The notes: generated by a model not told the origin, from the sequence alone. Shown: positions 61-46,054, numbered from the stretch's first letter. The stretch is DNA of 46,159 nucleotides from a virus (UHGV-1375912); one strand, 5' to 3'. Numbers and translations: made by a program.

Positions 61-1224
61 TTATGCCATCCCTCTGACTACCAGATTTTCCACATGGGAC
101 AGATTTGGGACACGACTTCCAAAAATCGCATCAATTTGCCGCGCATGCTCCGTTAAATGGTTAGGTGCAAGGTGCGCATATCGCTGGACCATTTCAATGC
201 TTTCCCAGCCGCCCATTTCCTGCAGCGCGGATAACGGAACGCCAGCCTGAATTAACCAACTCGCCCATGTATGCCGCAAGTCGTGAAACCGGAAGTCCTC
301 AATACCAGCTCGTTTCAGTGCTGCGCGCCACGCAGTGTTTGAATCGACCCGCATCTTCCTGACGCTGGCAGTTGTGGTCCCGTCATTTCTCTTCACCGAT
401 TCGGTGTGAACAAATACCCAGTTGTTGTGCCGGCCAATCTGTCGTCTCAGGACTGATTCAGCCATTTCATTCAGCGCTACGCCAATAGCTCTGCCTGACT
501 TACTTTCTTCCGGGTAAATCCACGCCACCTTTCGCTGCAGGTCAATCTGCTGCCACTTGAGATCAACGATGTTTGAACGGCGCAATCCTGTCGCCAGCGC
601 AAACTCTACGGTAGACTTCAGAGGTTCCGGACATTCATCAATCAGTCGCTTTGCTTCAGCGGGTTCGAGCCACCGCACCCGCTTATTTCTTTCCTGAGGC
701 ACTTTGATAACAGGCGACTTCTCGATCCATTTCCATTCCCGTTCCGCTGCACGCATCATCGCTTTCATTAATGCCAGGTGCTTAGCTTTGGTTGAGGTGG
801 AAACGGCAGCCGGTTTGTACTCCCCGATATCCAGCCCCTTCTTCGCCATTGATACGGCGCGCTGCTCCCATCTCTCTTTTGCTTTGCGGTTAGTCATCCT
901 GCTGACTGCGGCATAAATCTTCGCCTCGCTGATATCCTTCAGCAATACACCTTCAAAGTGCATGAGCCAGAATCCGATCCGGCCCTTATCTGCATCGAGT
1001 GATTTCTTGTGCGCCTTTTCTTCCAGCCAGCGAAGGCATGCTTCCTCGAACGTTACGTCAGGAAAATCACCCAGCCGCTCTATTCGCCATAACTCAGCCT
1101 TTCGCCGGTCGTGCAGCTCCTGTGCTTGCTTTCGGTCCTCTGTGCCAAGAGATTCCTTAATGCGCTTCCCGCCTGGCGTCGTGTAACTCCCGTACCAGAC
1201 GGTACCTCTGCGGAAGATCGACAT
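61..1224 (-). CDS. int: Tyrosine site-specific integrase, P4-like family.
   Basis: 387 aa. The C-terminal catalytic region reads [39 protein letters not shown] (R, H-x-x-R, Y). The gene sits directly beside the tRNA 3' end. Confidence 0.9.
94..114. repeat. Left copy of a 21-bp direct repeat ATGGGACAGATTTG(G/A)GACACG. Candidate attL core.
   Basis: 20 of 21 positions are identical to 46034-46054. The window is framed symmetrically by the two copies. The repeat lies inside the 3' end of the int ORF. Confidence 0.5.
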
Positions 1225-1451
1225 GATTTATTCTCCTCATGTGCATCTGCCGCGCTCACGGCGACAGTGTGCATTGGATTGTTGAGAGCGGCAATACAGG
1301 CCTGCCGGGTGAGGAGGTAGGGTGACTTTGGTTTGGACGGGTCTTTGCGCGTCGCCATCAGCCGTCCGGTCCGTATCCATTGCTGACACGTAGGCCGGGA
1401 AATGCCGAGGAACGCGCACGCCTCTTCCATAGACAGGGCATAGGTTTCCAT
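1080..1451 (-). CDS. Excisionase / AlpA-like HTH DNA-binding protein. The ORF runs 145 nt into the int start, so the functional length is uncertain.
   Basis: An HTH segment [24 protein letters not shown] lies immediately upstream of int. Confidence 0.5.
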
Positions 1452-1494
1452 ATCTACTCCTTTGGCGGCTTACCGCGGATAAATGCGATGATTA

Positions 1495-1532
1495 GCAAAA
1501 TGAAAAGGGCGAGGTCAGTTAAGAGCTCGCCC
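1495..1532 (-). terminator. Rho-independent terminator (GGGCGAG-N12-CTCGCCC plus U-tract) after the early-left genes and before xis/int.
   Basis: A perfect 7-bp inverted repeat is followed on the minus strand by TTTTCATTTT. Confidence 0.5.
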
Positions 1533-1557
1533 GGGGTGATGTCGTCGCAGGTGGTGG

Positions 1558-1866
1558 TCATTCTGCTGACAGCATGATTGAAAACTTATCCGACACCTCA
1601 TTTTTATAACGCTCAATGTCGTCATCCATGCTTCTGAATGGCACTTGCTTTCGGCTTCGCTGTAGCGTGTATCCGCAGCGGGCCATGTACCAAAGAAAAG
1701 TGTCGACAACATAGATGTGACCATCGCGAGCATTCCCATTGTCGTTAGCGTTCTGGATTGTATTGTGCATCGCTTTGAACAGGTCTTTCTGGTCATGGAA
1801 GTCGCGAAACTCACGCGGCATGTAATCTCCGCTTTTTAGCCAGGCATAAAGTGGATCGTTTGACAT
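1558..1866 (-). CDS. Hypothetical phage protein.
   Basis: 102-aa ORF in the early-left operon with good coding character. Confidence 0.5.
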   Translation of the reverse strand: MSNDPLYAWLKSGDYMPREFRDFHDQKDLFKAMHNTIQNANDNGNARDGHIYVVDTFLWYMARCGYTLQRSRKQVPFRSMDDDIERYKNEVSDKFSIMLSAE

Positions 1867-1912
1867 AACAACTCCTCACGCAGAGCGCGATAGTGAATAG
1901 GGTGGGTGGGGG

Positions 1913-2122
1913 TTAGTAGCAGAAATCGACTTTAAATTTGTGTTCGCAGGCGGGGCATTCAACATCTACATTGGTGGTTCTAGGGGTATCGTGCTCGCAA
2001 GCCTCAGCTCTTCCGCCATCAGCCCAAAAGTCGTCATCCTGCTCGATTAAATCGAAATACTCTTGGCACTCAGGGCATTCGGTATAGAGAGTGATGCGCC
2101 AGTCTGCATATATATTGCTCAT
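1913..2122 (-). CDS. Small zinc-ribbon protein with two CxxC pairs.
   Basis: CPEC...CPAC motifs in a 69-aa ORF. Confidence 0.5.
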   Translation of the reverse strand: MSNIYADWRITLYTECPECQEYFDLIEQDDDFWADGGRAEACEHDTPRTTNVDVECPACEHKFKVDFCY

Positions 2123-2331
2123 GCCACGCTCCTCTGGCTCTGCGCCCGCAAGAATTTCTCATGGTCTTCCCGGCACTCAGCGTCACAGTAGTGACCCTTG
2201 TCGATCGGCTCCTCGCACCAGTGGCATTCACCGGTGTAAACCATGTTCGGCTTAGGCCGGTTAGCCAGGGCAATCTCAATCATCTGCTGCTCGCGTTCTG
2301 CGGCTTCATCAATAGGGTCTGGATGTGTCAT
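2119..2331 (-). CDS. DksA/TraR-family C4 zinc-finger protein.
   Basis: 70 aa with CHWCEEPI...CDAEC. The size and position are typical of phage TraR-like genes. Confidence 0.6.
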   Translation of the reverse strand: MTHPDPIDEAAEREQQMIEIALANRPKPNMVYTGECHWCEEPIDKGHYCDAECREDHEKFLRAQSQRSVA

Positions 2332-2349
2332 TTAGGTTTCCTATAGGCA

Positions 2350-2375
2350 ATAAAAAACCCCGCCGGGGCGAGGTT
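2350..2375 (-). terminator. Short GC hairpin plus U6 terminator downstream of the 2394-2864 gene.
   Basis: The minus strand reads CCTCGCCCCGGCGGGGTTTTTTATT. Confidence 0.4.
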
Positions 2376-2393
2376 AGTTAAATATCGATTTCT

Positions 2394-2864
2394 CTATCGC
2401 CCGGTTACATAACTGATGCAATCCCGTGGGGATTTAGCTGATAGCCTTCCGTAATCGTAAGCACTACTAAGCTTCTTTATGGCCTCAGCGTTACCTGAGT
2501 ATCGTGAAATTACGGCAAGATATTTACTTGCTGCTCCACCCAGATCGCCAGAGACAGCTCCTTCACCGCCAAAATTACATACATTTGACATATCAACTGC
2601 AATATCAAAAGTGGTGGGCGGCTGGGTGTGCCGCAACTTATTTTCTTTGATATAGCTATCTGCTTTATCCACAATTTCTTTGCGCCAGCATAGGCCAGAC
2701 CCTTTTGGGGCCGCTTCTTCAGATTCTGCATAGCCATACTCATTAACTGAAAACTGGCAGTCCAAATTATTCTTCTCATCGTGTATGAAGAATGCAGAAT
2801 AAGAAAACTCAGAAGTTAATATAAGTGTGGAGAAGCAAGCTATTTTTAACAGATGTTGTGACAT
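2394..2864 (-). CDS. Secreted or periplasmic protein with a cleavable signal peptide and four Cys. Low-GC moron of unknown function.
   Basis: The N-terminus MSQHLLKIACFSTLILTSEFSYSA-FF has a type I signal peptide. GC is about 42% against about 52% for the neighbours. It has its own terminator. Confidence 0.6.
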   Translation of the reverse strand: MSQHLLKIACFSTLILTSEFSYSAFFIHDEKNNLDCQFSVNEYGYAESEEAAPKGSGLCWRKEIVDKADSYIKENKLRHTQPPTTFDIAVDMSNVCNFGGEGAVSGDLGGAASKYLAVISRYSGNAEAIKKLSSAYDYGRLSAKSPRDCISYVTGR

Positions 2865-2893
2865 GGCGATGTCCTCCTGTGGGGAGTATACGC

Positions 2894-3343
2894 CTATTCA
2901 GATGGGTTGGGCGCTGCTGCCAGCATGGATTTGTAGAGGCTAACGGGAAGAAACGCGTCCCCTTCATGGCTTTTAATTGCTGCAGAAATCATCTCCCAGC
3001 TCGGCTCTACCGGTACCAGCTTCCATCCTTCCGGAACCCGAAGCGCCGGCGCTGGCGGGTCGGTGTAGAGTTTTTGCCCCATAAATAAAGCGCCCTCAAA
3101 TAACGGTCTCACGGATTTACTAAGTGGCTCTTCACCAATAAGTTGCGCTGCTGTTACATAATCCCTAGGCTCGACGATAGCCACAGGCTGCGCGGTCAGT
3201 GCGGCGAGTGCGATTTTGAACAGTGATAACTCTTTCTCGGTGTCGCCATCAAAACCGAAAGGTATTTCATCGCGCGCCGCTTCAGCATCATCTATCCATG
3301 ATTTAGCATGCTCAATCAGCGCCTGCTTCTCTACCTCGTTCAT
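2894..3343 (-). CDS. Hypothetical phage protein. The likely start is the internal Met (MNEVEK) with an AAGGGG RBS; the longer ORF extends to 3487.
   Basis: The long ORF overlaps the upstream gene by 95 nt. The internal ATG at 3343 has a good RBS. Confidence 0.5.
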   Translation of the reverse strand: MNEVEKQALIEHAKSWIDDAEAARDEIPFGFDGDTEKELSLFKIALAALTAQPVAIVEPRDYVTAAQLIGEEPLSKSVRPLFEGALFMGQKLYTDPPAPALRVPEGWKLVPVEPSWEMISAAIKSHEGDAFLPVSLYKSMLAAAPNPSE

Positions 3344-3392
3344 TCTCTTACCCCTTATGCCGCTGTCAGGCTCAATGCCGCGGCGAAAATAG

Positions 3393-3704
3393 TTAGTCGC
3401 CGTGATAACGGCGTGCTGCCCATTCTGGATAGGCAGGGTTGGTATCTCTGACCGGAACCTCATGCTTACTGTGCCGGTTGCGCTCAATCGCTTCCTGATG
3501 CTCGACGTACTTCGTCAGACGCCGCTCCGTGGCCTCCTGCACCCATTCCTTTGTCTGGTCAGTGGTCCGTACTGATAGCGACGCCCTCACGCCTTTCTTC
3601 GCCAAAATCTGCTGCTGTGCGTCCTGCATCGCTAACATCCATCTGCGCTGTGATTCCGTTTCATCAGGGCGTGCAGAGTCCGCCGAAGGTTCGGTGATGG
3701 TCAT
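3393..3704 (-). CDS. Hypothetical phage protein.
   Basis: 103-aa ORF. Confidence 0.45.
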   Translation of the reverse strand: MTITEPSADSARPDETESQRRWMLAMQDAQQQILAKKGVRASLSVRTTDQTKEWVQEATERRLTKYVEHQEAIERNRHSKHEVPVRDTNPAYPEWAARRYHGD

Positions 3705-3726
3705 GAGGGTGCCTTATTGGTGGGTG

Positions 3727-4320
3727 TTAGAAGGGGGTAAAGCCTGAATCTTCTTGCTGAGGGTAGTTGCCATAATCATTGGCTTGCTGGCCGCCACCTT
3801 TCTTGCGCTCATCCTTGTCTTTCAGGCCGGACACCATGCGATCAACCGCCTCTGCGTTCTTGCCTTCAGACTTCTCCAGAAGCGTCTGACGGGTCTGAGC
3901 AATGAATGGCAGGCGAATCTCCAGACCGTACGTATCTGAGCCGTCATTTTTGCTGCGAAGGACTTTCTGGAGCACCAGGCCGACTTTCTTCCCTGCAAAT
4001 TCAGGCGCCACGAATGTCTTCGCGTCCTTCATCTGATTGGTTAACTGGCTCACACCGGCGCAACCCATGATTGCATGCACCATGTTGACGCCGAACGTGT
4101 TCTCACTGCCGTCCTTTTTGGAAACGTAAACACTGAGGTACTGAACCTTTCGCCCATCGTCTGCCTCGCCTGAGAACTCGATAGCCTTAGCGCCACCTTG
4201 AGAGGTGGTCAGCGCCGCCTCAGTGATAGTCAGAACGTATGCGCCTGACTCGTTGATGAAACCGCCTTGCCCGGCGGTTAATGCTGCTTCGTGGTTGTAG
4301 GTGAAAATCACATTACTCAT
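3727..4320 (-). CDS. Putative ssDNA-binding (SSB-like/DUF669-type) partner of Sak4. Acidic C-terminal tail ending FTPF.
   Basis: The gene lies directly downstream of the Sak4-like ATPase with a 4-nt overlap. The C-terminal acidic tail, ...QQEDSGFTPF, is reminiscent of SSB DDDIPF. Confidence 0.45.
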   Translation of the reverse strand: MSNVIFTYNHEAALTAGQGGFINESGAYVLTITEAALTTSQGGAKAIEFSGEADDGRKVQYLSVYVSKKDGSENTFGVNMVHAIMGCAGVSQLTNQMKDAKTFVAPEFAGKKVGLVLQKVLRSKNDGSDTYGLEIRLPFIAQTRQTLLEKSEGKNAEAVDRMVSGLKDKDERKKGGGQQANDYGNYPQQEDSGFTPF

Positions 4321-4997
4321 GCGGCTGATTCCTTCAGGTTATGAACATTTGATAAGCCCCAGTACTCGCAGATGGTCGCATCCACGAATGCCAGGTCATT
4401 GTCGATTTCGTTGCTTTCAAACATGCCCATCGGTGATTTCACCGTATCGGCACCGTTATTTTTGGTGGTGAAGAAGAACTGCTCATCACGCGTGAGTGTG
4501 CGCAGAACGATAGTGAACATGCCTTCGACGGTGATTTTTTCGTCCAGCATCTTGCCGATCGTTTTCATCTTCACGCGGCCCATCTGCGTCTCTTCTGTGT
4601 GAGCCATGAAGTAGACGCGAAGGTCATCTGGCGCATCCTGAGCAGCTTTAATGATGTCCCATGCGTGCCGGCCGATTTCGGTAAATTTATCGAAGGATTT
4701 CTCTTCGGAACGGCGCATGAATTCATTGCTCATCACATACTGGAAGTCGTCGATGATTACGATCCGCTTGCCAAGGTGATGCGCCCACTTAATGACGTTC
4801 ACGATGGCATCTGATTTATCGGTGGCTACGACAGTCCCTGTTTTTTTGTCCTTATCCCAAGGCAGCCAATCCTTTGACTTGAATGGCAGAGGTTTGCCAA
4901 CAGGCTTAACCAGCATTGCCATATTGGGATCGATGTTGCGCAGGCTGGTAGATTTACCAGTGCCTGACTCACCGAGAATTAGCGTTGCTGTACCCAT
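4317..4997 (-). CDS. Sak4-like RecA-fold ATPase (phage single-strand annealing and recombination protein).
   Basis: Walker A GESGTGKST near the N-terminus. Its ~226-aa size and pairing with an SSB-like gene match the Sak4 family. Confidence 0.7.
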   Translation of the reverse strand: MGTATLILGESGTGKSTSLRNIDPNMAMLVKPVGKPLPFKSKDWLPWDKDKKTGTVVATDKSDAIVNVIKWAHHLGKRIVIIDDFQYVMSNEFMRRSEEKSFDKFTEIGRHAWDIIKAAQDAPDDLRVYFMAHTEETQMGRVKMKTIGKMLDEKITVEGMFTIVLRTLTRDEQFFFTTKNNGADTVKSPMGMFESNEIDNDLAFVDATICEYWGLSNVHNLKESAA

Positions 4998-5188
4998 CAG
5001 TTAATCCCCATTCTCTCTGCCTGTCGCTCCGTACGGTAATCAGCCGCCGCTTCCATGGCGGCCTGCTGTGGCGTCATCTCATCAAGCACTGGCTCTAAGA
5101 TGGCCTTCATCATTTCGATGAAATAGATATCCGGATCAATCATGCTGCGTGCTCCTGGTGAATTGTGTAGCCCTGCTCTGTGAGCCAC
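4997..5188 (-). CDS. Hypothetical protein.
   Basis: 63-aa ORF tightly packed in the operon. Confidence 0.4.
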   Translation of the reverse strand: MAHRAGLHNSPGARSMIDPDIYFIEMMKAILEPVLDEMTPQQAAMEAAADYRTERQAERMGIN

Positions 5189-5334
5189 TCCATGACGTCT
5201 TTGATATCAAGCTGGTTCAGCACCTGCTTGCCGCTGAAGTCGAGCAGAGAGACCTCATCTGCTTCGATAATCATCATGCCGGGGCGATATCCGGCGCGCG
5301 TCTTAAGCTCGCCACATTCAATCTTCATTTTCAT
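5140..5334 (-). CDS. Hypothetical small protein. The start is taken at MKMKIECGEL; the long Arg-rich N-terminal extension of the 5140-5700 ORF is rejected.
   Basis: GGGAGAGAAG RBS before the ATG at 5334. ATGA overlap with the upstream ORF. Confidence 0.4.
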   Translation of the reverse strand: MKMKIECGELKTRAGYRPGMMIIEADEVSLLDFSGKQVLNQLDIKDVMEWLTEQGYTIHQEHAA

Positions 5335-5513
5335 TTCTTCTCTCCCAGCCCGAGGCTTCTGAGCATCAGGTTGATGAAGGTGAAATCCTTCGAGTTCTCC
5401 AGCATCTTGCGCTGGCGCTCTAACTCTTCCTGCTGCTTCTGGTAAGGCAGGGTGGGTGATTGAGTCTTCACGGTTTGCCCTCCTGCGATACGACCTGTAA
5501 CAGGCGCTCCCAA
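5331..5513 (-). CDS. Possible small ORF. The start codon is uncertain (TTG at 5513).
   Basis: It fills the gap between neighbouring ORFs but has no clear RBS. Confidence 0.2.
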   Translation of the reverse strand: MGAPVTGRIAGGQTVKTQSPTLPYQKQQEELERQRKMLENSKDFTFINLMLRSLGLGEKK

Positions 5514-5632
5514 AGCTGCTGTAAGCGGCTCTTAGGCTTCCACGACATAACGTCAGCGCCGGTGAGTTTGAAATCGAACATGGTGTTTTTGGGGCAGCCC
5601 GATGCCGCCCCAGCGATAGCGAAAGCTTGCAT
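5468..5632 (-). CDS. Small 54-aa ORF (MQAFAIAGAASGCPKNTMFDFKLTGADVMSWKPKSRLQQLWERLLQVVSQEGKP) absent from the supplied track.
   Basis: ATG with a GGAG RBS 9 nt upstream, found by manual translation. Confidence 0.3.
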   Translation of the reverse strand: MQAFAIAGAASGCPKNTMFDFKLTGADVMSWKPKSRLQQLWERLLQVVSQEGKP

Positions 5633-5663
5633 GGGGATACTCCGTTGAATGGGTTAGGTTGGT

Positions 5664-5691
5664 GTAAAAAAGAAGGCCGCACTAAGCGGCC
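5664..5691 (-). terminator. Internal terminator hairpin GGCCGC-ACTAA-GCGGCC plus U-run within the early-left operon.
   Basis: Perfect 6-bp stem. The minus strand reads GGCCGCTTAGTGCGGCCTTCTTTTTT. Confidence 0.45.
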
Positions 5692-5782
5692 AAATCGCAT
5701 CCTGTTCTGTCTCTATCATTTGAAACTTCACAGCGTTGGTGCGTAGCACCTCAAAGCCGTCTAAGCAGACAGCTTTACGGTG

Positions 5783-5968
5783 TCACTCAATAGGTAATTC
5801 AGGTATCTCACACCAAAAGCTTACCTGCGGTGTGTAATGGCTTAAACCAACCCACTGCAGCCCGTCATGCCATACTACGAATGGACGTTTTGATGGGCCG
5901 CTGAACCCAAGAACATAACGGCTATTATCAGGCAGCTTATCTTTAGATTTAATCCATTCCATCCTCAA
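5783..5968 (-). CDS. Small phage protein, DUF551-like.
   Basis: 61 aa. The W...LP...W pattern resembles DUF551, which is common in lambdoid early regions. Confidence 0.35.
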   Translation of the reverse strand: MRMEWIKSKDKLPDNSRYVLGFSGPSKRPFVVWHDGLQWVGLSHYTPQVSFWCEIPELPIE

Positions 5969-5980
5969 CCTCCTCAGTGG

Positions 5981-6271
5981 TTACTGGCCCAATGCCTTGG
6001 CGATGGCGGCTTCAACTTGAGCCAGCAGGCACTTGGTTGGGTGCATTGAACCTGCCTCGGCTTCATACCCGGCAGCATAAAGCTGGTTGCGCATACGCAG
6101 GCAAGCCTCAAGAAGCTCAGGTGCCGCAGCGATTAGCCTGGCGTTTGCCCAGTCTTCGTCGGATGGTTCGCATCCAGCAACTCCCGCAACAAGGTCGTAT
6201 CTCGCATCACACCCAACATCGCCTTCTTCATCAACAAACCACCGCCCAGGCGTTCCCTTAAACTCGCTCAT
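5981..6271 (-). CDS. Hypothetical phage protein.
   Basis: 96-aa ORF. Confidence 0.5.
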   Translation of the reverse strand: MSEFKGTPGRWFVDEEGDVGCDARYDLVAGVAGCEPSDEDWANARLIAAAPELLEACLRMRNQLYAAGYEAEAGSMHPTKCLLAQVEAAIAKALGQ

Positions 6272-6349
6272 CTCAACCTCCTGCTATAAACCCCAGCCCC
6301 ATCAACACACCAGTCACCAACCAAATGAATATGTAGTTACCAGTGCTTA

Positions 6350-6862
6350 TCATGGTTTGCGGGGGTATTTATGAAATTCACGAACGAACTCACCGTGATG
6401 AAGCTTTGCTGCTTCTATGTATTTCTGGTGAGCTTCTTCCGGGGTTTTATAGGTCCCCAGGTGTATCCTCTTGCCATTTACTCTAATACTGGCTTGCCAC
6501 TTTCCAGTAGATCGATGAGCACACACACCAGGAAACCCTGAACTGTTATCCTTTCTAACCTTTCGATTACACATATTTTGCTGATGTGTTGAAGGCCGAA
6601 GGTTTTGAATTCGATTGTCCGATGGATCGCCATTTATGTGGTCGATGAATTGTGGAACCTCACCTCCATGATGAATGATCCATGCCAGCCTATGCCCTTT
6701 AAATATCCTCCCTCCAACCTTGACAACTAAGTACCCAAGTTTGTCCGTATGCCCTGCGATTTGGCCTGCTTTCTTTCCTCCCCTTATGTCTTTTTTCCAT
6801 GTTAATAGCCCCGAATAAGGGTCGTAATTTAGAGCTTCAATTACTTCATGAATTACAGACAT
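6350..6862 (-). CDS. HNH homing endonuclease with a C-terminal AP2-type DNA-binding domain.
   Basis: HNH motif IDHINGDPSDNRIQNLRPSTHQQN. AP2-like segment GVCAHRSTGKWQASIRVNGKRIHLGTYKTPEEA. Local GC is low. Confidence 0.75.
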   Translation of the reverse strand: MSVIHEVIEALNYDPYSGLLTWKKDIRGGKKAGQIAGHTDKLGYLVVKVGGRIFKGHRLAWIIHHGGEVPQFIDHINGDPSDNRIQNLRPSTHQQNMCNRKVRKDNSSGFPGVCAHRSTGKWQASIRVNGKRIHLGTYKTPEEAHQKYIEAAKLHHGEFVREFHKYPRKP

Positions 6863-6871
6863 AATCCCCCC

Positions 6872-6900
6872 AATAAAAAAGGCTGCGGGTTAGGCAGCCT
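6872..6900 (-). terminator. Terminator hairpin AGGCTGC-GGGTT-GCAGCCT plus U6 immediately upstream of the HNH gene.
   Basis: The minus strand reads GAGGCTGCCTAACCCGCAGCCTTTTTTATTGG. Confidence 0.5.
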
Positions 6901-7178
6901 CAGATTTCGGTAAATGTTTGCTTGCTGATCCCTTTAGGGTTGAGCAGCCAGAATCGAAGCGCTCCTTTTTGGTCCCCCGAGCGCTTGAGATAGCGAATGA
7001 AGTCAATCCGCTCGGTTCTGGTGCCGGATAATGGATAGCTGTACTCAGCCATTTACTGGTGCTTTTTCACGAGCCTTCTGATTAATCTGTCGCTTCATTT
7101 GGGAAACCATTCGCTTTGCCATGGCCCGGTCTTCGCAAAGCTCAAAAGCAATCCTGTACATCTCTTTGTCACTCATAT

Positions 7179-7430
7179 TCAACCTCTCGTCGTTACGATG
7201 TCTTTTGAGTTGCGATAGCCGCGACGACTACTGCGCGTTTCTTCTTGCCAAGCCTGCGCGTCATCTAATGCGGAATCACCATCAAATACTTTGTTTTTCG
7301 GGTCGTTCTTGGCGATGACTTTCGGGCGCTTCTCATCCATTGCATGAAAAGTCCAACTGGTAGGCGTTTCATTGATAATCCGGCCACCAATAAGCCACCC
7401 GCTTGCTTTAGCGTGTATTGCCATGCTCAC
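7179..7430 (-). CDS. Hypothetical protein.
   Basis: 83-aa ORF. Confidence 0.4.
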   Translation of the reverse strand: MSMAIHAKASGWLIGGRIINETPTSWTFHAMDEKRPKVIAKNDPKNKVFDGDSALDDAQAWQEETRSSRRGYRNSKDIVTTRG

Positions 7431-7511
7431 CTCAAATAAGTGGAATTGATTTAACTCCGCAGCACTCTCGTGAGAATGCTCTGGAATTACCCGGCGAACC
7501 GGGCGATTTTC

Positions 7512-7682
7512 TTATTTCTCAGCCGCCCATTTACGAGCTCTTGCGCGATTAGCCAAGGCCAGCTCAGTGAAAGAGCGGCGGGAAAGATGCAGGCCCTTCT
7601 GTTTGCTTTCAGCTGCCCGGTCACGGTAATGCTTAACTTCTTCACGACACTCTTTTGCGAAAACTTCAGTCAAAATGCTCAT
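7512..7682 (-). CDS. Hypothetical small protein. The start is taken at MSILTEV with a GAGG RBS; the longer ORF reaches 7766.
   Basis: The internal start avoids an 80-nt overlap with the upstream gene. Confidence 0.4.
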   Translation of the reverse strand: MSILTEVFAKECREEVKHYRDRAAESKQKGLHLSRRSFTELALANRARARKWAAEK

Positions 7683-7684
7683 AA

Positions 7685-7966: not shown

Positions 7967-8095
7967 AACCCCTCACTTAATGATGTGTGTTACATCCTTA
8001 CGGACGGTTCGGTAGCCCGCGTTATAGACAGCCACATCCGGCAGACATAACGATGTGCTCTCATGCCTGTCACGCAGAGAAGGGGAGAAGGCGGT

Positions 8096-8689: not shown

Positions 8690-8757
8690 CACAAAAAAGC
8701 CCGCTCAGTGGCGGGCTATTCGTGAGGCGGGTATGAAAAACCCGGCGCGGTGGCCGG
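8690..8757 (-). terminator. Tandem rho-independent terminators (AGCCCGC-TCAGTG-GCGGGCT plus U6; CCGGC-GCGGTG-GCCGG plus U5) downstream of the 8768-9715 moron gene.
   Basis: Two GC hairpins are each followed by a minus-strand T-run. The second hairpin recurs at 44763-44784. Confidence 0.55.
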
Positions 8758-8767
8758 ATGAAATTCT

Positions 8768-38324: not shown

Positions 38325-38908
38325 TGATGTACTCACCGTTTTCAGACTCAATGGTTGACTGGTTATCACGTGACCGCGTGACGGTGGTTGTGGCCGCTAA
38401 CATCCAGTTCGAATCAGGAACCGCATACGTGCATTCCGGCACCGGGACGATCGTTATAAACGGATTTGTCTACTACGGCATGGGGCGGATGGGCTCGATT
38501 GATGACGTAAACGAAACGAATACGACAAGCCCGTCACAGCTGAAGATGACGTTGTCAGGTCTCGATATGTCACTTTTTGCCAAAACTCTCAATGAGAGGT
38601 GCGTAGGCCGGTCTGCAGAGATATTCCTTGTCGCGATAGACGATAACGGGCAGGTGCGGATTGCTGACCTGATTTTCCAGGGCAAGGTCTCCAGTACTGG
38701 CGCAACCGCGGGCGAAACTAACGCATTGCAGTATACCGTCAGCAATATCTTTGAGGACTGGCAGCGACCATTTCCAGACCGATTTACCGATGAATCACAT
38801 CAGTCGTCGCAGCCGGGTGACAGGATATTCCGTTACGTTGCGCAGATGTCTGAGCGGTCAATTTTCTGGGGCAGTAAAAAGGATGCGCCAGGCTTTACCT
38901 ATTCGTGA
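38324..38908 (+). CDS. Minor tail protein.
   Basis: ATGA-coupled to the upstream gene. 194 aa. Confidence 0.5.
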   Translation: MMYSPFSDSMVDWLSRDRVTVVVAANIQFESGTAYVHSGTGTIVINGFVYYGMGRMGSIDDVNETNTTSPSQLKMTLSGLDMSLFAKTLNERCVGRSAEIFLVAIDDNGQVRIADLIFQGKVSSTGATAGETNALQYTVSNIFEDWQRPFPDRFTDESHQSSQPGDRIFRYVAQMSERSIFWGSKKDAPGFTYS

Positions 38909-38914
38909 GGTTTT

Positions 38915-39313
38915 ATGAAGCACCCTGACTGGCAGAAGAGGCTTGTAACTGTAATTAAGGCCGCCGAGAAGCGGCCTTTTTCATGGGGAGAGCATGACTG
39001 CTGCCTGTTTGCCGCCGATTGCGCGCAGGCAATGTGTGGCGAAGATTTTGCCGCTGAATTCCGCGGGAAGTATGACAGCGAAACCGGAGCGAAAAAGGCG
39101 CTGCTGCGTGGCGGCGGTTCACTTGAGCGTGTTCTCTCACGCTTTCTTGAAGAGGTGAGTCCGGCATTTATACAGCGTGGAGATATCGCTGTGGTCGAGA
39201 ACGCCGGGCGCAGGTGCGCAGGGGTTTTTTATAGTGGCGCGGTATGGGTTCCGGGCGATTCAGGCCTGGTTGGATTACGCGGAAATGTATTGAGTGCATG
39301 GAGGGTTAACTGA
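38915..39313 (+). CDS. NlpC/P60-like tail-associated cell-wall peptidase (gpK-like).
   Basis: 132 aa with the conserved Cys/His region GEHDCCLFAADC...H. Position before the J-like gene. Confidence 0.45.
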   Translation: MKHPDWQKRLVTVIKAAEKRPFSWGEHDCCLFAADCAQAMCGEDFAAEFRGKYDSETGAKKALLRGGGSLERVLSRFLEEVSPAFIQRGDIAVVENAGRRCAGVFYSGAVWVPGDSGLVGLRGNVLSAWRVN

Positions 39314-41985
39314 TGCCTGCTGCTATTCCAATCGTTGCGGCTGTGGCCGGTGGTATTGCCGTTGCTAACCAGGCTTACGCCATCGCAATGGTAATCACCG
39401 TGGCCGCTCAGCTTGCCTCTCAGGCTCTGGCGAAAAAGCCCTCCATGGGTGGTTACCGGGACACCCAGGAGAGGAAGCAGGTTCTTCGCGCCGCTGCCAG
39501 TGCCAAAACAGTTATCTATGGCAAAACTCTTTCGGCCGGCACGCTCTTCTTTTCGGAAGAGCAGGAGGGTGACCAAACTGATGGAGAGCTGCTACACCTG
39601 GCCATTACACTCGCCGGCCATCCAATTACCGGCGTTGGCGCCGTTTACCTTGGCGACGATGACATTTCGACCTACGGCAGCAAGGCCTCTTATGAGGTGC
39701 ATATTGATCGCCAGATAGCAGATCCTTATCTGCTGGCAAATGCACCTTCATGGAAGGAGGACATGATTGGTAAGGGCATTAGCTGGCTTAGGGTGACGCT
39801 TCAGTTTGATGCGGAAAAATTCCCCTCTGGCATTCCCAATATTACCGTTGAGAAGCTTGGTCGAAAGGTGTATGACCCACGCACGGGCCAGACGCTTTAC
39901 AGCAACAATGCCGCTCTGTGCATCCTCGACTATTACCGCAACTACCTCAAGGTTCCTGACTCTGACATCAACTGGGATCAGTTCAAGGAAGCAGCGAACA
40001 TTTCAGACGAAAGGGTTACCAGTACCGGCAATCTGACCGAGCTTCGTTACACCATAAATGGTGAGTTCGACCTGAGCGAGAATAAGGCAAGCATCCTTGA
40101 ATCAATGCTTTCTGCATGCTCTGGAGAGGCTACTTATATAGCGGGCAAGCATGGCATTCTGGTTGGTGCTTATTACGGGCCAGCGACAGAAGAGATCACT
40201 GAAAGTCAGCTGGCGGGCGATATTGAAATCATGCCCGAGGTATCTCAGTCTGAGCGTGTGAATACTATCAAAGGCACCTTCACTGACCCGGAACAGCGAT
40301 TTGCAGAGGTGGATTTCCCTACCGTCTCTGTATCCGAATGGGTAGCTGAGGATGGCGTTGAGATTTCTCAGGACCTCAAGCTTCGCTTTGTGACCTCCGA
40401 ATTTCAGGCTCAGCGGCTGGCTGACATTAAGCTAAAGCGTACTCGCATATCCCGGACCATGAACGTTACGCTAAACCTGAGCGGATACCGTTATCGACCG
40501 GGAATGTATGTGAAGGTTAACTTTCCTTCGCTGGGGATTATCGGCGTTGAGATGCGTGTAACGGACTGGAGATTCGGCGTTCAGAATGGCGTACAACTCA
40601 CACTCAAGCAGGAAACAGCCGGGGTGTGGGGTGACGCAATTGGGCAGCCTATCGATCGCCCTCCATTCACGCAATTGCCAACTGGCGGGGTGGCTCAGCC
40701 ACAGAACCTGAAATACACCGTTGAAGAAATCGGTCAGGTAGTTCAGGGGGTGCTTTCATGGCAGAACGTGGGTCAGTATGTTTATAACCAGGTCCTTATC
40801 AGGAAAGACGGACAGCTGGTTTTATCGGTGCAGGTTCCTGGCTCATTTACCCGCCTCACCGGACTACTGCGAGACACGTACACAGCGCATGTCATAGCGG
40901 TTAACCAGATGGGCGCCCAGTCTCCTGAGGCATATCTTGAATTCAGTATCGAAGCGCCACCACCACCTTCTGCTGTGGATCAGAAGCAGGGTTATTTTTC
41001 TGTAACTCTCATCCCTCGCATCAATGAGATAACCAACGTCTCAACACAGTTCGACTTCTGGACTTCAGGCCTGACTCAGCTACCTAATGCCAACCAGTCC
41101 ACGGTGGAAGGCAATGCAAGTCGTGCCGGCATCGGAAGTAACTGGACAGCTTACGAACTGAAAATTGGCCCTACGTATTACTGGTATGTGAGGACAATAA
41201 ACGCCTTTGGAACCTCTGCGTTCGTTGAGGTGCCGGTTGTATGCAATACGGATACTGGTGAACTGATTGACTACATCGATAATCAGATCCGCAAGTCAGA
41301 AGCATTTGACCGGCTCACTTCATCCATTGATACGAGTGTTGATGCAATCCTGCAGAACGCCCTTAACCTTGATGCGTCTGTGGATCATCAGTTTGAGGCT
41401 TACGGTCGAAACCGAGCCGACATCATTACTGTCCGTCAGACCATTGCCACCAATGACAGCGCCTATGCTCAGAAATTTGAGCAGATTCAGGCCCAGTCAG
41501 ACCAGAACACTGCGTCAGTGCAACAGGTATCAAGTGCATACGCTGACCTTAGCGGCAAGCTTTCTGCTCAGTGGGGCGTGAAGGTGCAGATTGACAGGAA
41601 TGGGACTAAATATGTCGCTGGCATGCAGCTTGGGGTGGAAGGCAACGGCGGGTCCACTCAATCATTTGCACTCTTTAGCGCAGATACATTCGCAATCTAC
41701 AACACAAGTACCCTTGGCTATCAACTGGCGTTCACCGCAGTTAATGGTCAGGTGTTCATTAATGACGCGCTTATCAACTATGCCTCGATAACGCTTGCCA
41801 AAGTGGGATCATGGTACTCCGCAAACTATGTGGCTGGCAGGTCAGGAACAATTATGAGGGCTGATGGTTCTTTTGAATTATATGGAGGCTCAGGACGTTC
41901 CGGCGGAAGTGTGTTTAACGAGACAGGAATGGCTGTTTATGATGCCAATGGCGTGGAGAGATTTAAGGCGGGAAAACTAAACTGA
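39313..41985 (+). CDS. Host-specificity protein (lambda J-like central tail fibre / tip protein).
   Basis: Segments collinear with lambda J: YYWYVRTINAFGTSAFVEV versus [21 protein letters not shown], and AQWGVKVQIDRNGTKYVAGMQLGVE versus [25 protein letters not shown]. Confidence 0.75.
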   Translation: MPAAIPIVAAVAGGIAVANQAYAIAMVITVAAQLASQALAKKPSMGGYRDTQERKQVLRAAASAKTVIYGKTLSAGTLFFSEEQEGDQTDGELLHLAITLAGHPITGVGAVYLGDDDISTYGSKASYEVHIDRQIADPYLLANAPSWKEDMIGKGISWLRVTLQFDAEKFPSGIPNITVEKLGRKVYDPRTGQTLYSNNAALCILDYYRNYLKVPDSDINWDQFKEAANISDERVTSTGNLTELRYTINGEFDLSENKASILESMLSACSGEATYIAGKHGILVGAYYGPATEEITESQLAGDIEIMPEVSQSERVNTIKGTFTDPEQRFAEVDFPTVSVSEWVAEDGVEISQDLKLRFVTSEFQAQRLADIKLKRTRISRTMNVTLNLSGYRYRPGMYVKVNFPSLGIIGVEMRVTDWRFGVQNGVQLTLKQETAGVWGDAIGQPIDRPPFTQLPTGGVAQPQNLKYTVEEIGQVVQGVLSWQNVGQYVYNQVLIRKDGQLVLSVQVPGSFTRLTGLLRDTYTAHVIAVNQMGAQSPEAYLEFSIEAPPPPSAVDQKQGYFSVTLIPRINEITNVSTQFDFWTSGLTQLPNANQSTVEGNASRAGIGSNWTAYELKIGPTYYWYVRTINAFGTSAFVEVPVVCNTDTGELIDYIDNQIRKSEAFDRLTSSIDTSVDAILQNALNLDASVDHQFEAYGRNRADIITVRQTIATNDSAYAQKFEQIQAQSDQNTASVQQVSSAYADLSGKLSAQWGVKVQIDRNGTKYVAGMQLGVEGNGGSTQSFALFSADTFAIYNTSTLGYQLAFTAVNGQVFINDALINYASITLAKVGSWYSANYVAGRSGTIMRADGSFELYGGSGRSGGSVFNETGMAVYDANGVERFKAGKLN

Positions 41986-43067
41986 TGGCCGATATATACG
42001 GGGTAAGGATAACTCCAGATGATGGTGGCAAGCCGATCATACTGGACGCTTCAATGCGCTATGCGTCATATTTAGGAAGCGCATCAATGCTGGCAAATGC
42101 TGGATCAGTGGGTGGATTCAAGCCTCAGCCAGTTAACAGCAAGCCTCTGATAGTTCCGAGGAATTTGGTTCGTGTTTATCTGGGAACCAATCCGGCAGGT
42201 CCGCCCATGGCATATATCAGCAGCATTTCTTTTAACGGCAACTCCCTTGTTTACACCGCAAAATACAGGAACCCGGATAGCAATACACCGCAAGCTATTG
42301 AGGCAGGCTTTGCAGATGTATTTTCTGTCTCATATGCTGCAAACCCTTCCGTGGAATATGGAGTCAGGATCACCAATGGTTCGAATTTTATGGAGATTGG
42401 CGACATATCGTATCTTGGATTTGTAACCTACAGAGCTGTCATCAATATAAATGGCTCGTGGAGCATTCCATCCGATGTGGTGAACCTTGGAAATTACATC
42501 GTTTTTGCCCGATGGTCTAACACGGATAACCCCCTTTACCTCGATAGAGGAAGCAACGCCATAAAATCATACACGGCGTTTGGCAGCACTCAGGGTTCGA
42601 TTGAAGGTGGTACGGTAAACAATGTCCAGGTAGTCATTGTGTCGTGCGGATTTTCTCCATCACTCCCTGTTTCAGGGTATGGAATGGTTATCCGCAATGC
42701 ATCAAATCAGGTTACTTACTCAAGCAAGTATCCTCCTGTCATGTGGACCGATGCTTACTACGACATTGGAGGATATGAGAACTTTGATGGATCTACTGGA
42801 GAGGTTCAGTCCTGGGTAAACCCAACTGGTTCAGTTTCACAGCCGATGGTGCCTTTATGCAGCCTCGGCACACAGAGAGGCGATTACAGCCGCAATAATA
42901 ACTACTCCTTTCGTATATGCCTTGAGTCTGGGCTGAAGATGAATGGAAACGCTATTACTACCGCAAGAGCTAAATCTACAGGCAGGGAAATTGCAGTGTA
43001 CAACTTCCCCAAAGCGATTCAGGCGGCCTGCCAGCTTCCATGCATTGATGCCAGTTACTACTTCTGA
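41985..43067 (+). CDS. Distal tail protein of unknown function (possible receptor-binding accessory). Lower GC.
   Basis: 360 aa. ATGA-coupled to the J-like gene. Confidence 0.5.
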   Translation: MADIYGVRITPDDGGKPIILDASMRYASYLGSASMLANAGSVGGFKPQPVNSKPLIVPRNLVRVYLGTNPAGPPMAYISSISFNGNSLVYTAKYRNPDSNTPQAIEAGFADVFSVSYAANPSVEYGVRITNGSNFMEIGDISYLGFVTYRAVININGSWSIPSDVVNLGNYIVFARWSNTDNPLYLDRGSNAIKSYTAFGSTQGSIEGGTVNNVQVVIVSCGFSPSLPVSGYGMVIRNASNQVTYSSKYPPVMWTDAYYDIGGYENFDGSTGEVQSWVNPTGSVSQPMVPLCSLGTQRGDYSRNNNYSFRICLESGLKMNGNAITTARAKSTGREIAVYNFPKAIQAACQLPCIDASYYF

Positions 43068-43129
43068 AAAAACACATAAACCAATGAACCCGGCCAACTC
43101 GCCGGGTTTTTTATTGCCCGGAGAAAGCT

Positions 43130-44308
43130 ATGCCAGCAGGCACTATTGCACTAACCAACAACTCAACAGCAGTTACCGGCTCAGGCACTAATTTTTCCTC
43201 TGAGCTGAAGGCTAACGATTTTATTGTCACCGTTGTAGGCGGCGTGACTTACACACTTGGCGTGCAGTCAGTTAACTCAGCCACAAGCGTGACACTGACT
43301 ACGGCATACAATGGGCCGACAACGTCAGGGCTGGCATGGACGGCGGTTCCCAATGCGGCGCTGGTTGGGATTACTGCTCAGGTAGCAGCTGATGTCGCAA
43401 GAGCAATACGCGGACTTAATCTCGATAAGGCGAACTGGCAAAAGATTTATAGCAATGATCCGTCCGTTACCGTGACCCTGCCAGGCATGAGTAGCTTCAC
43501 GGGTCCAAGTTGGGGTTATTTAGCTGGGCAGGTTAATGGTAAACTATCAACAGACTCAGCAACGCTACGTAAACTCTTTACTTCTGCCTTCGTAAATCCC
43601 GGAGATAATTGGGCTTACCCAGGTGTAGCCACATATAATAACAATTTGTGGGGAAGCCCTAGCCAGTGGGGAACAGTTCTTACGCTATCAAATCAGGATG
43701 TAAGCGGGAATGGGGCTGAAGGGCGTTGGTATAGCTATATTCAAATTGATACATTGGGTAATTTCACAATTGCTGCAAATATCAATAATACATTCTTTGG
43801 AGCTTACCGCGTCTGGACTACGAAAAACACTACGGTGGACGGATCTGGTTTTATTAAGCGCGCATCACCAATTGTGCGTCTGACGGCAAGCGTAGAAATT
43901 ATGAGTGATGAATTTACTGACAATTTCAATATTGCTGGCAGCGGCGCGGTCAATGAAGAGGCCGAGGGAGTTATAATCGAAAAACTTGGTGAAGGTAATT
44001 ATCGCATTTCTGGTTCCGATGGCCTTGCAAAAGACGGGTGGCAGATAGAGGTTCCAAAAGACATCAATGGTAACCGGTTGTGCTTCGTTGAGGTCACCGA
44101 GGGGCTAACCGGCATTCTGATTAAAGTATTCAAGCCAAAACTTGACCTTGAGACGGGAGGCATAGTTGCCGGTGAGAAGTATGATATTCCAGATGGGCGC
44201 TGGGTTGATGTACGGTTAGAGATGCCTTCAACATCAATTTACAACGTCAGACATCAGAAAGCTGCCAGTCAAATACAAGCTTCTCAGTCAGGAGAGGTAA
44301 AGCCCTAA
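43130..44308 (+). CDS. Tail fibre protein.
   Basis: 392 aa. The N-terminus MPAGTIALTNNSTAVTGSGTNF is typical of fibre shaft starts. Low GC. Confidence 0.55.
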   Translation: MPAGTIALTNNSTAVTGSGTNFSSELKANDFIVTVVGGVTYTLGVQSVNSATSVTLTTAYNGPTTSGLAWTAVPNAALVGITAQVAADVARAIRGLNLDKANWQKIYSNDPSVTVTLPGMSSFTGPSWGYLAGQVNGKLSTDSATLRKLFTSAFVNPGDNWAYPGVATYNNNLWGSPSQWGTVLTLSNQDVSGNGAEGRWYSYIQIDTLGNFTIAANINNTFFGAYRVWTTKNTTVDGSGFIKRASPIVRLTASVEIMSDEFTDNFNIAGSGAVNEEAEGVIIEKLGEGNYRISGSDGLAKDGWQIEVPKDINGNRLCFVEVTEGLTGILIKVFKPKLDLETGGIVAGEKYDIPDGRWVDVRLEMPSTSIYNVRHQKAASQIQASQSGEVKP

Positions 44309-44482
44309 AAAAACCCGGCGACGGGGCAGAGCGGACCGCTCCTATCTCAGCAGGCTGCGCGGTGTGTGATAAGAGTTGGCTCTCCCGGAGGCGGCTACAG
44401 GTGGCAGCCAAGAAAAAAGCCCGGCGACCGGGCAATGACTCAGCCGCTCCTGTCTGAGCAGGTTGCGGGGTGGGTAATTTGA
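44308..44482. repeat. Two ~70-bp direct repeats, each starting with a GC hairpin (CCCGGCGACGGGG / GCCCGGCGACCGGGC) preceded by an A-run and followed by CCGCTCCT(A/G)TCT(C/G)AGCAGG.
   Basis: Alignment of 44308-44375 with 44413-44482. Terminator-like on the minus strand. Confidence 0.5.
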
Positions 44483-44761
44483 GATTAGTCATCACAGAAA
44501 CGGCGGGCAAAAAAATACCCGCCCCCCAATGAACAGGGCAGGTACAAAGTGAGGTGAAGCGCTAGAGCGCGCATGGGTGCTCTGTTGTTATCGGCCTCTC
44601 TACAGTGCACACAAGAAGGGAGTGGGGTGGATTTCCCTTCTTGCGTCAGATTGGCAGAACTATCCGTTTCCACCTATCTTCAGAAAGTCTATTGATAATG
44701 AATTCAACAACAAGCGTAAGCGGTAAGTTTTTTTGGTGTAGTGCTGCTGAACGTGTGACAC

Positions 44762-44790
44762 AAAAAACCCGGCGCGGTGGCCGGGTTAAA
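44762..44790 (-). terminator. Terminator for the minus-strand cargo gene. The hairpin AAAAACCCGGCGCGGTGGCCGG is 22 bp identical to 8736-8757.
   Basis: The minus strand reads CCCGGCCACCGCGCCGGGTTTTTTGTG immediately after the 44794 stop. Confidence 0.55.
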
Positions 44791-44793
44791 AGG

Positions 44794-45072
44794 TTAAGCA
44801 ACACTTCGCAGCTTTAAGCCATCATCGTAGCCCATAAGGTATGCTGTGAAGGCATCCTTATGGCGAACATAGCTTGCTTGGCTTTCGGCCAGTTCGCTGA
44901 GCACTCCATCATCGGTAGACTTAGGAACGCCAATCATCGCGTGCCATTTCCCCAAATCATACGCACATCCTGCGCATTTGTGGCGCCCCGTTTGGCCTTG
45001 ATTCTCTGGAAGAACCTCGAACATTTGGTTGCGGCGATGACTTTGTTTGCAGATTTGTTTCATAAAGCGCAC
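44794..45072 (-). CDS. Hypothetical cargo protein (92 aa) on the opposite strand beyond the tail fibres.
   Basis: Own terminator. AT-rich upstream region. Confidence 0.45.
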   Translation of the reverse strand: MRFMKQICKQSHRRNQMFEVLPENQGQTGRHKCAGCAYDLGKWHAMIGVPKSTDDGVLSELAESQASYVRHKDAFTAYLMGYDDGLKLRSVA

Positions 45073-45428
45073 CTAAAATAAGGCGCTGAACGCTTTACAC
45101 GGGATCTCGCTTGAGATAGTCTCTTTGGCGAGATCTCAAGAAAACATTCAAGCACTGACTGTTTTTATTGGCCCCTCGGAACTTCGACCTTCCGCAGGGG
45201 CTTTCCCTTATGTGCAGATCACTATTTGACCGCACAACATCGGGATAATATCTAGGCAGCACAAAAACCTCAATAAAAAGATCAGCTTAACTGCTGTATT
45301 TTTTCACATCTGTGCATTAATCCAGTTTTACCCCATTCCCAGATCACCGAAAACTAAATTTCTTTGCCCACCAACAGCTTTACAATTCCTTCAATCGCTC
45401 CGCCTTGATCAAAACCACCGATCGATAT

Positions 45429-45448
45429 TACTGTTTATTCATACAGTA
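45429..45448 (+). promoter_or_regulatory. LexA (SOS) box TACTGTTTATTCATACAGTA upstream of the 45470 operon.
   Basis: Perfect TACTGT-N8-ACAGTA about 20 nt upstream of the ATG. Confidence 0.6.
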
Positions 45449-45469
45449 TTTATCAGAAGAGGATTTGTC

Positions 45470-45709
45470 ATGCCACGCGACTACGAGATTAAAGATGCAT
45501 TTGTAAGCGCCATAAGGCGCAGCCCGGATGGTGGCGTCACTGTCACCACTCATGAGTTTGTTCGCCAGTTGGAGCTTCTCAACTGGCACTTCAGCCTGCG
45601 TGAGGCTAATCAGTGGATCAAGTCGCATACGGTGACGTTCCGGGATGTCTCTACTCAGGAGGGTGAAGCTAAGACGTACAAGCAGTTCAACCCGAACGGG
45701 GGCATCTGA
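45470..45709 (+). CDS. SOS-regulated small protein of unknown function (79 aa).
   Basis: LexA box upstream. Its stop is 1 nt before the UmuD'-like start. Confidence 0.5.
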   Translation: MPRDYEIKDAFVSAIRRSPDGGVTVTTHEFVRQLELLNWHFSLREANQWIKSHTVTFRDVSTQEGEAKTYKQFNPNGGI

Positions 45710-45710
45710 C

Positions 45711-46034
45711 ATGGGCTTTCCATCTCCTGCGCAGGACCATATTGAGCACCGACTTAACCTGAACGATATTCTGATGCCGAACCCGGCCAATATGATGCGC
45801 ATTGAAACGCCGGAGGGATTTGTGCTGGTAGACCGTTCTGCCCGGATGAGGCCAGGAGACACCGTGGCATATCAGCTTGAGGATTATCCGCAGATTGGGA
45901 AACTGTTCCCCTCGGGCATCATCACTCAGGATGGCGAGACGATCGACGGCCAGGGGCTTGATGGAGTAGTGGTGCTGGGAAAGGTCACGGCGGAGGTTCT
46001 CGCTGTGTATGAGCCATACCGGCCGACTATCTGA
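45711..46034 (+). CDS. UmuD'-like (HumD-like) protein: S24-fold homologue that begins at the position of the UmuD autocleavage site. No GDSM motif is visible.
   Basis: MGFPSPAQDHIEHRLNLNDIL versus UmuD' GFPSPAADYVEQRIDLNQLL. The C-terminal beta region aligns. A Lys like that in VKKL is present (IGKL). Confidence 0.55.
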   Translation: MGFPSPAQDHIEHRLNLNDILMPNPANMMRIETPEGFVLVDRSARMRPGDTVAYQLEDYPQIGKLFPSGIITQDGETIDGQGLDGVVVLGKVTAEVLAVYEPYRPTI

Positions 46035-46054
46035 TGGGACAGATTTGAGACACG
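46034..46054. repeat. Right copy of the 21-bp direct repeat. Candidate attR core.
   Basis: ATGGGACAGATTTGAGACACG, starting at the last base of the UmuD'-like stop codon (TGA 46032-46034). Confidence 0.5.

Follow-up and report, generated by a model that had tools for sequence, protein, structure and literature searches.

The DNA of virus UHGV-1375912, a stretch of 46,159 nucleotides referred to below as the window, carries near its ends a 21-bp direct repeat, ATGGGACAGATTTGGGACACG, at 94-114 and, with one mismatch (G to A, 20/21 identical), at 46034-46054. These 21-mers are very probably the outer arm-type integrase sites of a P22-like phage attachment site (attP), the core of which is the tRNA-Arg segment at 1-45. 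Site geometry, conservation, contiguity and covariation were seen directly, as were the empty (attB), left (attL) and right (attR) attachment-site junctions in relatives; physical binding by the integrase (Int), integration host factor (IHF) and the excisionase (Xis) is presumed by analogy. A preliminary description of the window had taken the 21-mer itself as the att core, and had given arm-type sites, with the core in the tRNA 3′ end and attR beyond the window, as its fallback; the fallback is the reading supported by relatives and free phages.

The repeat pair itself was confirmed by a scan of both strands with up to 3 mismatches, which returned no further copy in the window, and by 100 dinucleotide shuffles of the window, which gave 0 matches to the 21-mer (chance expectation 0); a repeat-finding scan listed the pair as D10. 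Translation likewise bore out that the left copy lies inside the 3′ end of int and encodes RVPNLSH. Each 21-mer consists of two TGRGACA half-sites (TGGGACA or TGAGACA) 11 bp apart, and the repeat reads as a 21-mer because both doublets of the window share the spacer GATT. The earlier statement that the sequence occurs nowhere else holds for the whole 21-mer but not for the half-site, a fifth of which (TGGGACG, 46100-46106) lies in the same orientation. Smaller points were adjusted in the same way: the right copy touches the stop codon of the UmuD′-like gene, as had been noted, but begins on the last base of that codon (46032-46034) rather than exactly at the codon; 61-93 comprises 10 codons plus stop, not 11; and the tRNA fragment, placed before as ending at 46, has its CCA at 43-45.

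The five half-sites were named P1-P3 and P'1-P'2 by analogy, with offsets counted from the start of the core (Table 1). They are unlike the core in sequence and stand on both arms, within ~130 bp of it. TGRGACR is not enriched over the window as a whole (18 found, 20.5 expected); only its clustering at attP is significant, with 5 of the 18 matches inside 240 bp, all on one strand (P ~ 3e-8). Fourteen attL loci conserve the P'1-P'2 doublet. An alignment of 13 P arms becomes conserved exactly at P1, and the sequence upstream is unrelated cargo (the UmuD-like gene in the window, gtr genes in P22, others elsewhere). A functional attP would be expected to have its outer edge marked in this way, and the start of conservation at P1 also explains the unrelated flanks that had been remarked on. 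Further in, the block ATGGGACGTGTGAGCGC is invariant in 14 of its 17 columns, and nearly so in the other 3, across 13 P arms including those of P22 and epsilon34. On the other arm, positions 51-63 hold the only exact match to WATCAANNNNTTR in the 46-kb window, with an IHF consensus at the matching offset in P22 and epsilon34; IHF would be expected to bind there.

This pattern bears on the possibility that the right copy is a functionless by-product of recombination or a chance duplication, the left copy being kept only as code for the Int tail. The left copy is indeed coding (VPNLSH), and its conservation alone is ambiguous. The right copy, however, is non-coding and is conserved in 13 relatives in which the sequence just upstream is unrelated; a chance duplication is not expected from the shuffles, and a sister family of integrases, described below, has exchanged the motif on its two arms together. 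A by-product is accordingly hardly credible.

In free phages the end of the window is joined to its start. The left 1.3 kb of the window matched Pantoea phage PA-1 in a phage collection at 85% (window 1-1271) and epsilon34, P22-like phages and APSE at ~70%, and the last 125 bases (46035-46159) matched, within the same phage records, the stretch directly upstream of the int-region match. PA-1 has the window end at 44688-45061 and the window start at 45062-46332, BIS08P22 has them at 39963-40088 and 40089 onward, the two BLAST matches in ENT47670 lie a few bases apart, and attP of P22 and epsilon34 has the arrangement of PA-1. The end-to-start join aligns colinearly throughout with attP of PA-1, epsilon34 and P22, so that in the circular phage 46159 precedes 1 and the 21-mers lie ~220 bp apart around a tRNA-like segment; PA-1, P22 and epsilon34 each have both doublets at that distance around a tRNA-like core. 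The same join was found in contig L009 from another sample (...GGTCATTCTAGGAA joined to CTTCTAAGCCGTAGGTCACAGG, with TCTAGGAA left of the join and CTTCTAAGCCGTAGG right of it) and in L014, L015, L027, L079 and L104; loci and contigs are cited here by L number. Since int, the tRNA fragment and both 21-mers are contiguous in free phages (~240 bp), no part of int is supplied by the host, contrary to the proposal that 1-93, with the 3′ end of int, is host DNA in the prophage. The int tail of phage PA-1 and of prophages L036, L053 and L066 is that of the window (...VPN(L/M)SH...), and the analogy drawn before with e14 and phage 21, where attP lies within int, was given up because phage and prophage int have the same tail.

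Two Logan contigs end in the core, L001 starting at window position 16 and L009 ending at core nucleotide 30, and each keeps exactly 30 nt of core. Logan assembly uses k = 31, so 30 nt equals k-1. The contig ends are consistent with branching of the assembly graph between 45 and 46 and between 46159 and 1, the core having two contexts in the samples; at the level of the assembly they hint that those samples hold the core in duplicate. One of the two contigs encodes an Int identical to that of the window; the exact Int sequence was found only on one Logan contig, of 1.46 kb. The window-specific P'-arm 45-mer was absent from IMG/VR and a metagenome collection, no record was found for the sequences of the window's UmuD-like protein and Xis, and neither window end matched E. 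coli genomes, which excludes E. coli as the host.

The 45-nt core corresponds to nucleotides 33-77 of the 77-nt tRNA-Arg(tct) of attL and attB loci, and identity between phage and host stops at both edges of this block. ARAGORN called no tRNA in the window, since the gene is represented there by just its 3′ 45 nt. The annotated attP core of P22 (BK000583, 21300-21322) aligns to window 7-29. As the homology of relatives begins at position 1 and ends at 46159, the window appears to be exactly one att-delimited phage unit with one copy of the core. By the same comparisons the crossover would fall within the 45-nt tRNA 3′ segment (1-45), and the exact 7-bp overlap is presumably inside it.

An exact scan with the 45-mer, in one genome per species, returned 94 loci, mostly in Pantoea, Erwinia, Mixta and other Enterobacterales. 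Loci of the attB class have a complete 77-nt tRNA-Arg followed by ordinary host sequence; those of the attL class have a complete tRNA, then the int stop, the TGGGACA doublet and int; and in those of the attR class a conserved P arm that ends in TCTAGGAA runs into the 45-mer, which lacks the tRNA 5′ half and is followed by host sequence. Two prophages were found with both core copies on one contig, 45,327 bp apart in Pantoea sp. NSTU24 (L036/L104) and 49,269 bp apart in Pantoea sp. 1.19 (L053/L079); in both, attL is full tRNA, P' arm and int, and attR is P arm, core and host flank. Prophage pairs from Izhakiella and Scandinavium also have the core duplicated at both ends, with the intact tRNA at attL and the fragment at attR. 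Empty sites match these junctions: the upstream flank of L017 is 95.8% identical to the upstream flank of NSTU24 attL (1536 nt) and its downstream flank matches that of NSTU24 attR from base 1, while the sequence after the intact tRNA in L090 is 100% identical over 1483 nt to the attR flank of L015.

If the 21-mer were an att core duplicated by integration, as in e14 and phage 21, the prophage would run from 94 to 46054, and 1-93 and 46055 onward would be host DNA. Two near-identical 21-mers near both ends with dissimilar outer flanks do invite this reading, and comparison with an empty site, expected to hold a single copy, had been set beforehand as the test. None of 14 empty tRNA-Arg loci of relatives (8 kb each, up to 3 mismatches) contained the 21-mer, and none of window 47-93 or 46055-46159 was present in such sites. 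Those outer flanks are instead phage DNA, conserved across phages and prophages from several genera as part of the attP arms, and mutually contiguous in free phages that hold both copies. It is the 45-nt tRNA segment that borders the prophage pairs, PA-1 Int has the same C-terminal tail, and an attR with a duplicated tRNA 3′ fragment, which had been named as evidence against the 21-mer core, was found in relatives directly right of the window-end sequence. The 21-mer has next to no chance of being the core.

The arm-type reading of the 21-mers is further supported by the recombination proteins. Int and P22 Int share 69% identity over 380 residues without gaps, and 63% over residues 1-62; the window protein matches Pfam PF00589 (E = 5e-44, residues 185-355) and PHROG integrase families, and shows a weak DUF6538 match. 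Its HDLRHT and RYAHL motifs align with XerC/XerA structures, and a PDB sequence search matched the catalytic domain only. Xis shares 59% identity with its P22 counterpart (E = 9e-48) and matches a PHROG excisionase family (E = 8e-39) and HTH_17. In lambda-type integrases an arm-binding sheet lies in the N-terminal residues (Biswas 2005, as cited in PMC2629481). A single-sequence AlphaFold (AF2) model of Int, poor as a whole, has strands at residues 2-6, 9-15 and 21-25 and a helix at 31-53, with a predicted local distance difference test score (pLDDT) of ~70.

The TGGGACA arm motif is combined with a thrW-type core in P22 and L005, and the argU core has another arm repeat, TGTGTCGT, on its two arms in L002, L047, L094, L095 and L100. 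The Int N-terminus follows the arm motif (MSIFRRGxxWYxSY with TGGGACA, MSITLRGGxWHCHFF with TGTGTCGT), the difference being sharpest in the first 15 residues. The Int tail also changes with the arm motif, from VPNLSH to DTNTTQ, because the P' doublet lies inside the reading frame. From these alignments the arm motif appears to go with the integrase lineage, whichever core is targeted, and the last ~25 Int residues appear tied to the enzyme's own arm specificity (VPNLSH with TGGGACA, DTNTTQ with TGTGTCG). The covariation is the best evidence here that the Int N-terminus reads the sites, and suggests direct binding.

The sister family has 387-residue integrases, the same tRNA-Arg core and TGTGTCGT arms (L002, L038, L042, L047, L056, L068, L070, L087, L094, L095 and L100); two or three of its repeats stand together in the int 3′ end, with direct and inverted copies on the P arm. 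In L005 (ERZ27278862 k141_12558, 3565-3740) a P arm nearly identical to that of the window, with 2 changes in the 21-mer and the same UmuD-like gene upstream, leads into a tRNA-Thr(CGU)-like core of the kind found in P22, so near-identical arms can pair with a different core.

The repeats might alternatively be attP sites for another protein, Xis or a host factor, with Int binding its arms elsewhere or not at all. The sites are known from their sequence, and the conserved palindrome and GTGTGAGCGC block of the P arm (Table 1) demonstrate that other conserved elements exist there. This alternative is nonetheless quite improbable: the sites stand on both arms, where attP has its outer limits, they change together with the first 15 residues of Int, and their positions match those in P22, whose arm-type sites are mapped.

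Several points weigh against the assignment of the 21-mers as Int arm sites. The Int model is poor (mean pLDDT 40.6 overall, ~70 for residues 1-45), too much so to be searched against known folds, and hhalign of Int against the lambda N-domain, for which an approximate query sequence was used, was not significant (E = 0.16). A consensus IHF site was looked for on the P arm and none was found. Int binding to the arm sites of this phage is suggested by sequence comparison, and the aligned TGGGACA sites of P22 are ones which, on secondary citations, we take to be the footprinted arm-type sites; a full-text literature search for the TGGGACA motif returned nothing relevant. Because the window stops at both junctions, its own attR and attB are predicted from those of relatives.

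Table 1. Coordinates of int, xis and the attachment-site elements in the window, with half-site offsets from the core start in the window and in three phages
Feature	Position or offsets	Strand	Description
att core	1..45	+	3′ 45 nt of tRNA-Arg(UCU), first base of anticodon loop to CCA
IHF consensus (H'-like)	51..63	+	AATCAACGAGTTA, between core and P'1; TTA is the complement of the int stop
int	61..1224	-	P22-type tyrosine integrase, 387 amino acids, complete within the phage
P'1 half-site	94..104	+	TGGGACA at 95-101; within int coding sequence
P'2 half-site	105..114	+	TGGGACA at 106-112; 11 bp after P'1
xis	1080..1451	-	P22-type excisionase overlapping the int start
P1 half-site	46034..46044	+	TGGGACA at 46035-46041; outer edge of conserved attP module
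P2 half-site	46045..46054	+	TGAGACA at 46046-46052; 11 bp after P1
Imperfect palindrome/hairpin	46054..46085	+	Between P2 and P3, followed by ATGTTTTCGC (10-nt tail)
P3 half-site	46099..46115	+	TGGGACG at 46100-46106, plus conserved GTGTGAGCGC
Inner P arm	46116..46159	+	Ends in TCTAGGAA directly before core of attP/attR; 46159 is the last P-arm base
Window half-site offsets	-125, -114, -60, +94, +105		
PA-1 half-site offsets	-125, -114, -60, +94, +105		
P22 half-site offsets	-126, -115, -61, +93, +104		
epsilon34 half-site offsets	-126, -115, -61, +94, +105		

The mechanism would follow the lambda/P22 paradigm. In the phage circle attP would have the order P1-P2, palindrome, P3, core, IHF site and P'1-P'2. 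A small N-terminal domain of Int would hold the arm sites while its C-terminal domains bind and cut the core; the half-sites, each ~10 bp and spaced 11 bp centre to centre, would lie on one face of the helix, and DNA bending would fold the arms onto the core to form the intasome. Exchange with the tRNA gene inside the 45-nt identity would regenerate the tRNA. In the lysogen the tRNA 5′ half, GCGCCCTTAGCTCAGCTGGATAGAGCACCGGC, would stand left of position 1, and a second core copy (CTTCTAAGCC...GTGCCA), predicted for this window from its relatives, right of 46159. Integration would split the arms, leaving P'1-P'2 beside int at attL and P1-P2-P3 at attR ~46 kb away, and it is through this split that the repeats appear to frame the element. 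For excision, Xis would act on the P arm.

A second role for P'1-P'2 was considered, in which Int, sitting on the 3′ end of its own gene at attL or attP, acts as a roadblock or feedback on int transcription and, with the hairpin between P2 and P3, forms a sib-like element joined to int only in the circle. This is unlikely; were it so, arm specificity could switch only if five DNA sites, the N-domain and the tail all changed together.

The hairpin between P2 and P3 was returned as a terminator-like match with 13 pairs. Nine relatives, P22 among them, preserve the stem, in which 2 pairs are compensatory, and in the epsilon34 record its homologue is labelled as a possible terminator and as CII sites. 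It may terminate a cargo operon read rightward, serve int read-through as a sib-like element, or be a palindrome bound by a protein such as Xis. Its assignment as a clear terminator was set aside, since its run of T is short and a protein-bound palindrome accounts for it just as well. At the inner end of the P arm, thrW-type relatives have TCTTATAA or TCTTAGAA next to the core, whereas the window has TCTAGGAA.

Remnants of the attachment site were seen beside intact tRNA-Arg genes in many Pantoea, Kalamiella, Mixta and Klebsiella genomes, as stubs made up of the core, an IHF-like site, P'1-P'2 and 130-320 bp of the int 3′ end. In window coordinates the stubs break off at ~318 (L029, L030 and L032), ~294 (L048), ~275 (L037), ~202 (L078) and 133 (L035), with unrelated DNA beyond; the break at ~318 is common to three species. 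They look like fossil attL ends of lost prophages. Four further loci (L041, L083, L096 and L102) have the same tRNA-Arg core with very different P arms and direct repeats (GGGTGCTCTTACGGGTGTC; AGGTCAAGTTACGGGTCAAGTTA). The tRNA-Arg 3′ end is an integration hotspot common to several integrase families. In Erwiniaceae tRNA-Arg(UCU) (attB and attL loci of Pantoea and Erwinia, for example L017, L021, L036 and L090) the anticodon stem is CCGGC/GCCGU, with C27 opposite U43, and in Enterobacteriaceae with the same tRNA-Arg 3′ half it is ACGGC/GCCGU and fully paired. The shared 3′ half might derive from repeated replacement by phage-borne cores.

Upstream of P1, window 45470-46034 holds a 79-residue gene and a 107-residue 'UmuD-like' gene that travel as a pair (also in L002-L009). 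The 107-residue protein matches PHROG 3469 (E = 1e-20) and gave no match to Pfam Peptidase_S24. The pair stands at the attP-proximal end of prophages, in at least 4 different downstream att/int contexts, and looks like a mobile cargo cassette. Elsewhere in the window a GC-rich, hairpin-like repeat (AAAAACCCGGCG..GGCCGG) has four copies, at 8735-8763, 44308-44327, 44414-44433 and 44762-44790, three of them grouped in the interval from the tail-fibre region to the cargo genes. These repeats are probably terminators bracketing morons.

The annotation of the element is thereby corrected: its boundaries would be the 45-nt tRNA-Arg segment, int is wholly phage-encoded, and the repeats would be arm-type Int sites. 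The set of relatives compared also illustrates from nature how P22-type integrases combine arm and core specificities independently, TGGGACA being found with argU and thrW cores and the argU core with TGGGACA and TGTGTCGT, and such assortment could guide the design of chimeric integrases. Nothing here will surprise the specialist. The phage is a Pantoea-type mosaic siphovirus-like prophage. Its int, xis and attP, judged on sequence, make up a new, ordinary member of the P22/epsilon34/DLP12 module family, targeting an argU-type tRNA-Arg(UCU).

The arm, core, IHF and Xis sites of P22 are reported to have been mapped by experiment, and its int-xis-attP module has reportedly been studied by Leong (1985), by Smith-Mungo, Chan and Landy (1994) and by Mattis (2008). 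P22 attP is listed with a length of 260 bp, IHF sites and a 116-residue Xis in Table 1 of PMC4111918, and P22 is counted in a preprint among the few systems with mapped arm- and core-binding sites (bioRxiv 10.1101/2023.11.06.565760, citing Smith-Mungo 1994). Like the window, P22 has five TGGGAC half-sites, at offsets within 1 bp, with a doublet and a single site on the P arm and, within the 3′ end of int, a doublet on the P' arm; it also has an IHF consensus between core and P'1, and attP spans ~240-260 bp. The two differ in the core, which is the 3′ part of tRNA-Arg(UCU) in the window and tRNA-Thr (thrW) in P22, in the bases next to the core (TCTAGGAA in the window, TCTTATAA in P22), in the spacer bases within the doublets, and in host range, that of the window being Pantoea/Erwiniaceae; outside the module the phage is an unrelated mosaic.

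Closer in target are epsilon34, DLP12 (compared by description only) and PA-1, which use the same tRNA and have a 43-45-nt tRNA-identical core just downstream of int (PMC2629481). In PA-1 the window end is joined to the start in a circular phage record. The half-sites of epsilon34 are more degenerate than those of the window (TGAGACA, CGGGACA, TGTGACA), and argU-type relatives have gtr genes or an acyltransferase beside P1, where the window has the pair of the 79-residue and UmuD-like genes. With e14 and phage 21 the likeness is superficial and lies in an att-related repeat inside int coding sequence; in the window the int-internal site would be arm-type rather than the crossover, int is intact in both forms, and the tRNA is regenerated.

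Lambda attP has P1 and P2 and P'1-P'3, the IHF sites H1, H2 and H', and sites for Xis and Fis. As described for lambda (PMC2951348; PMC4111918), a heterobivalent Int would bridge arm repeats and a distinct core, and an attP of ~240 bp would recombine with a minimal attB; in the prophage the arms are parted into attL and attR in both systems. No significant sequence similarity was detected between the lambda Int N-terminal domain and the window Int. The arm consensus, site number and spacing of lambda differ from those of the window, and the lambda core does not lie in a tRNA gene.

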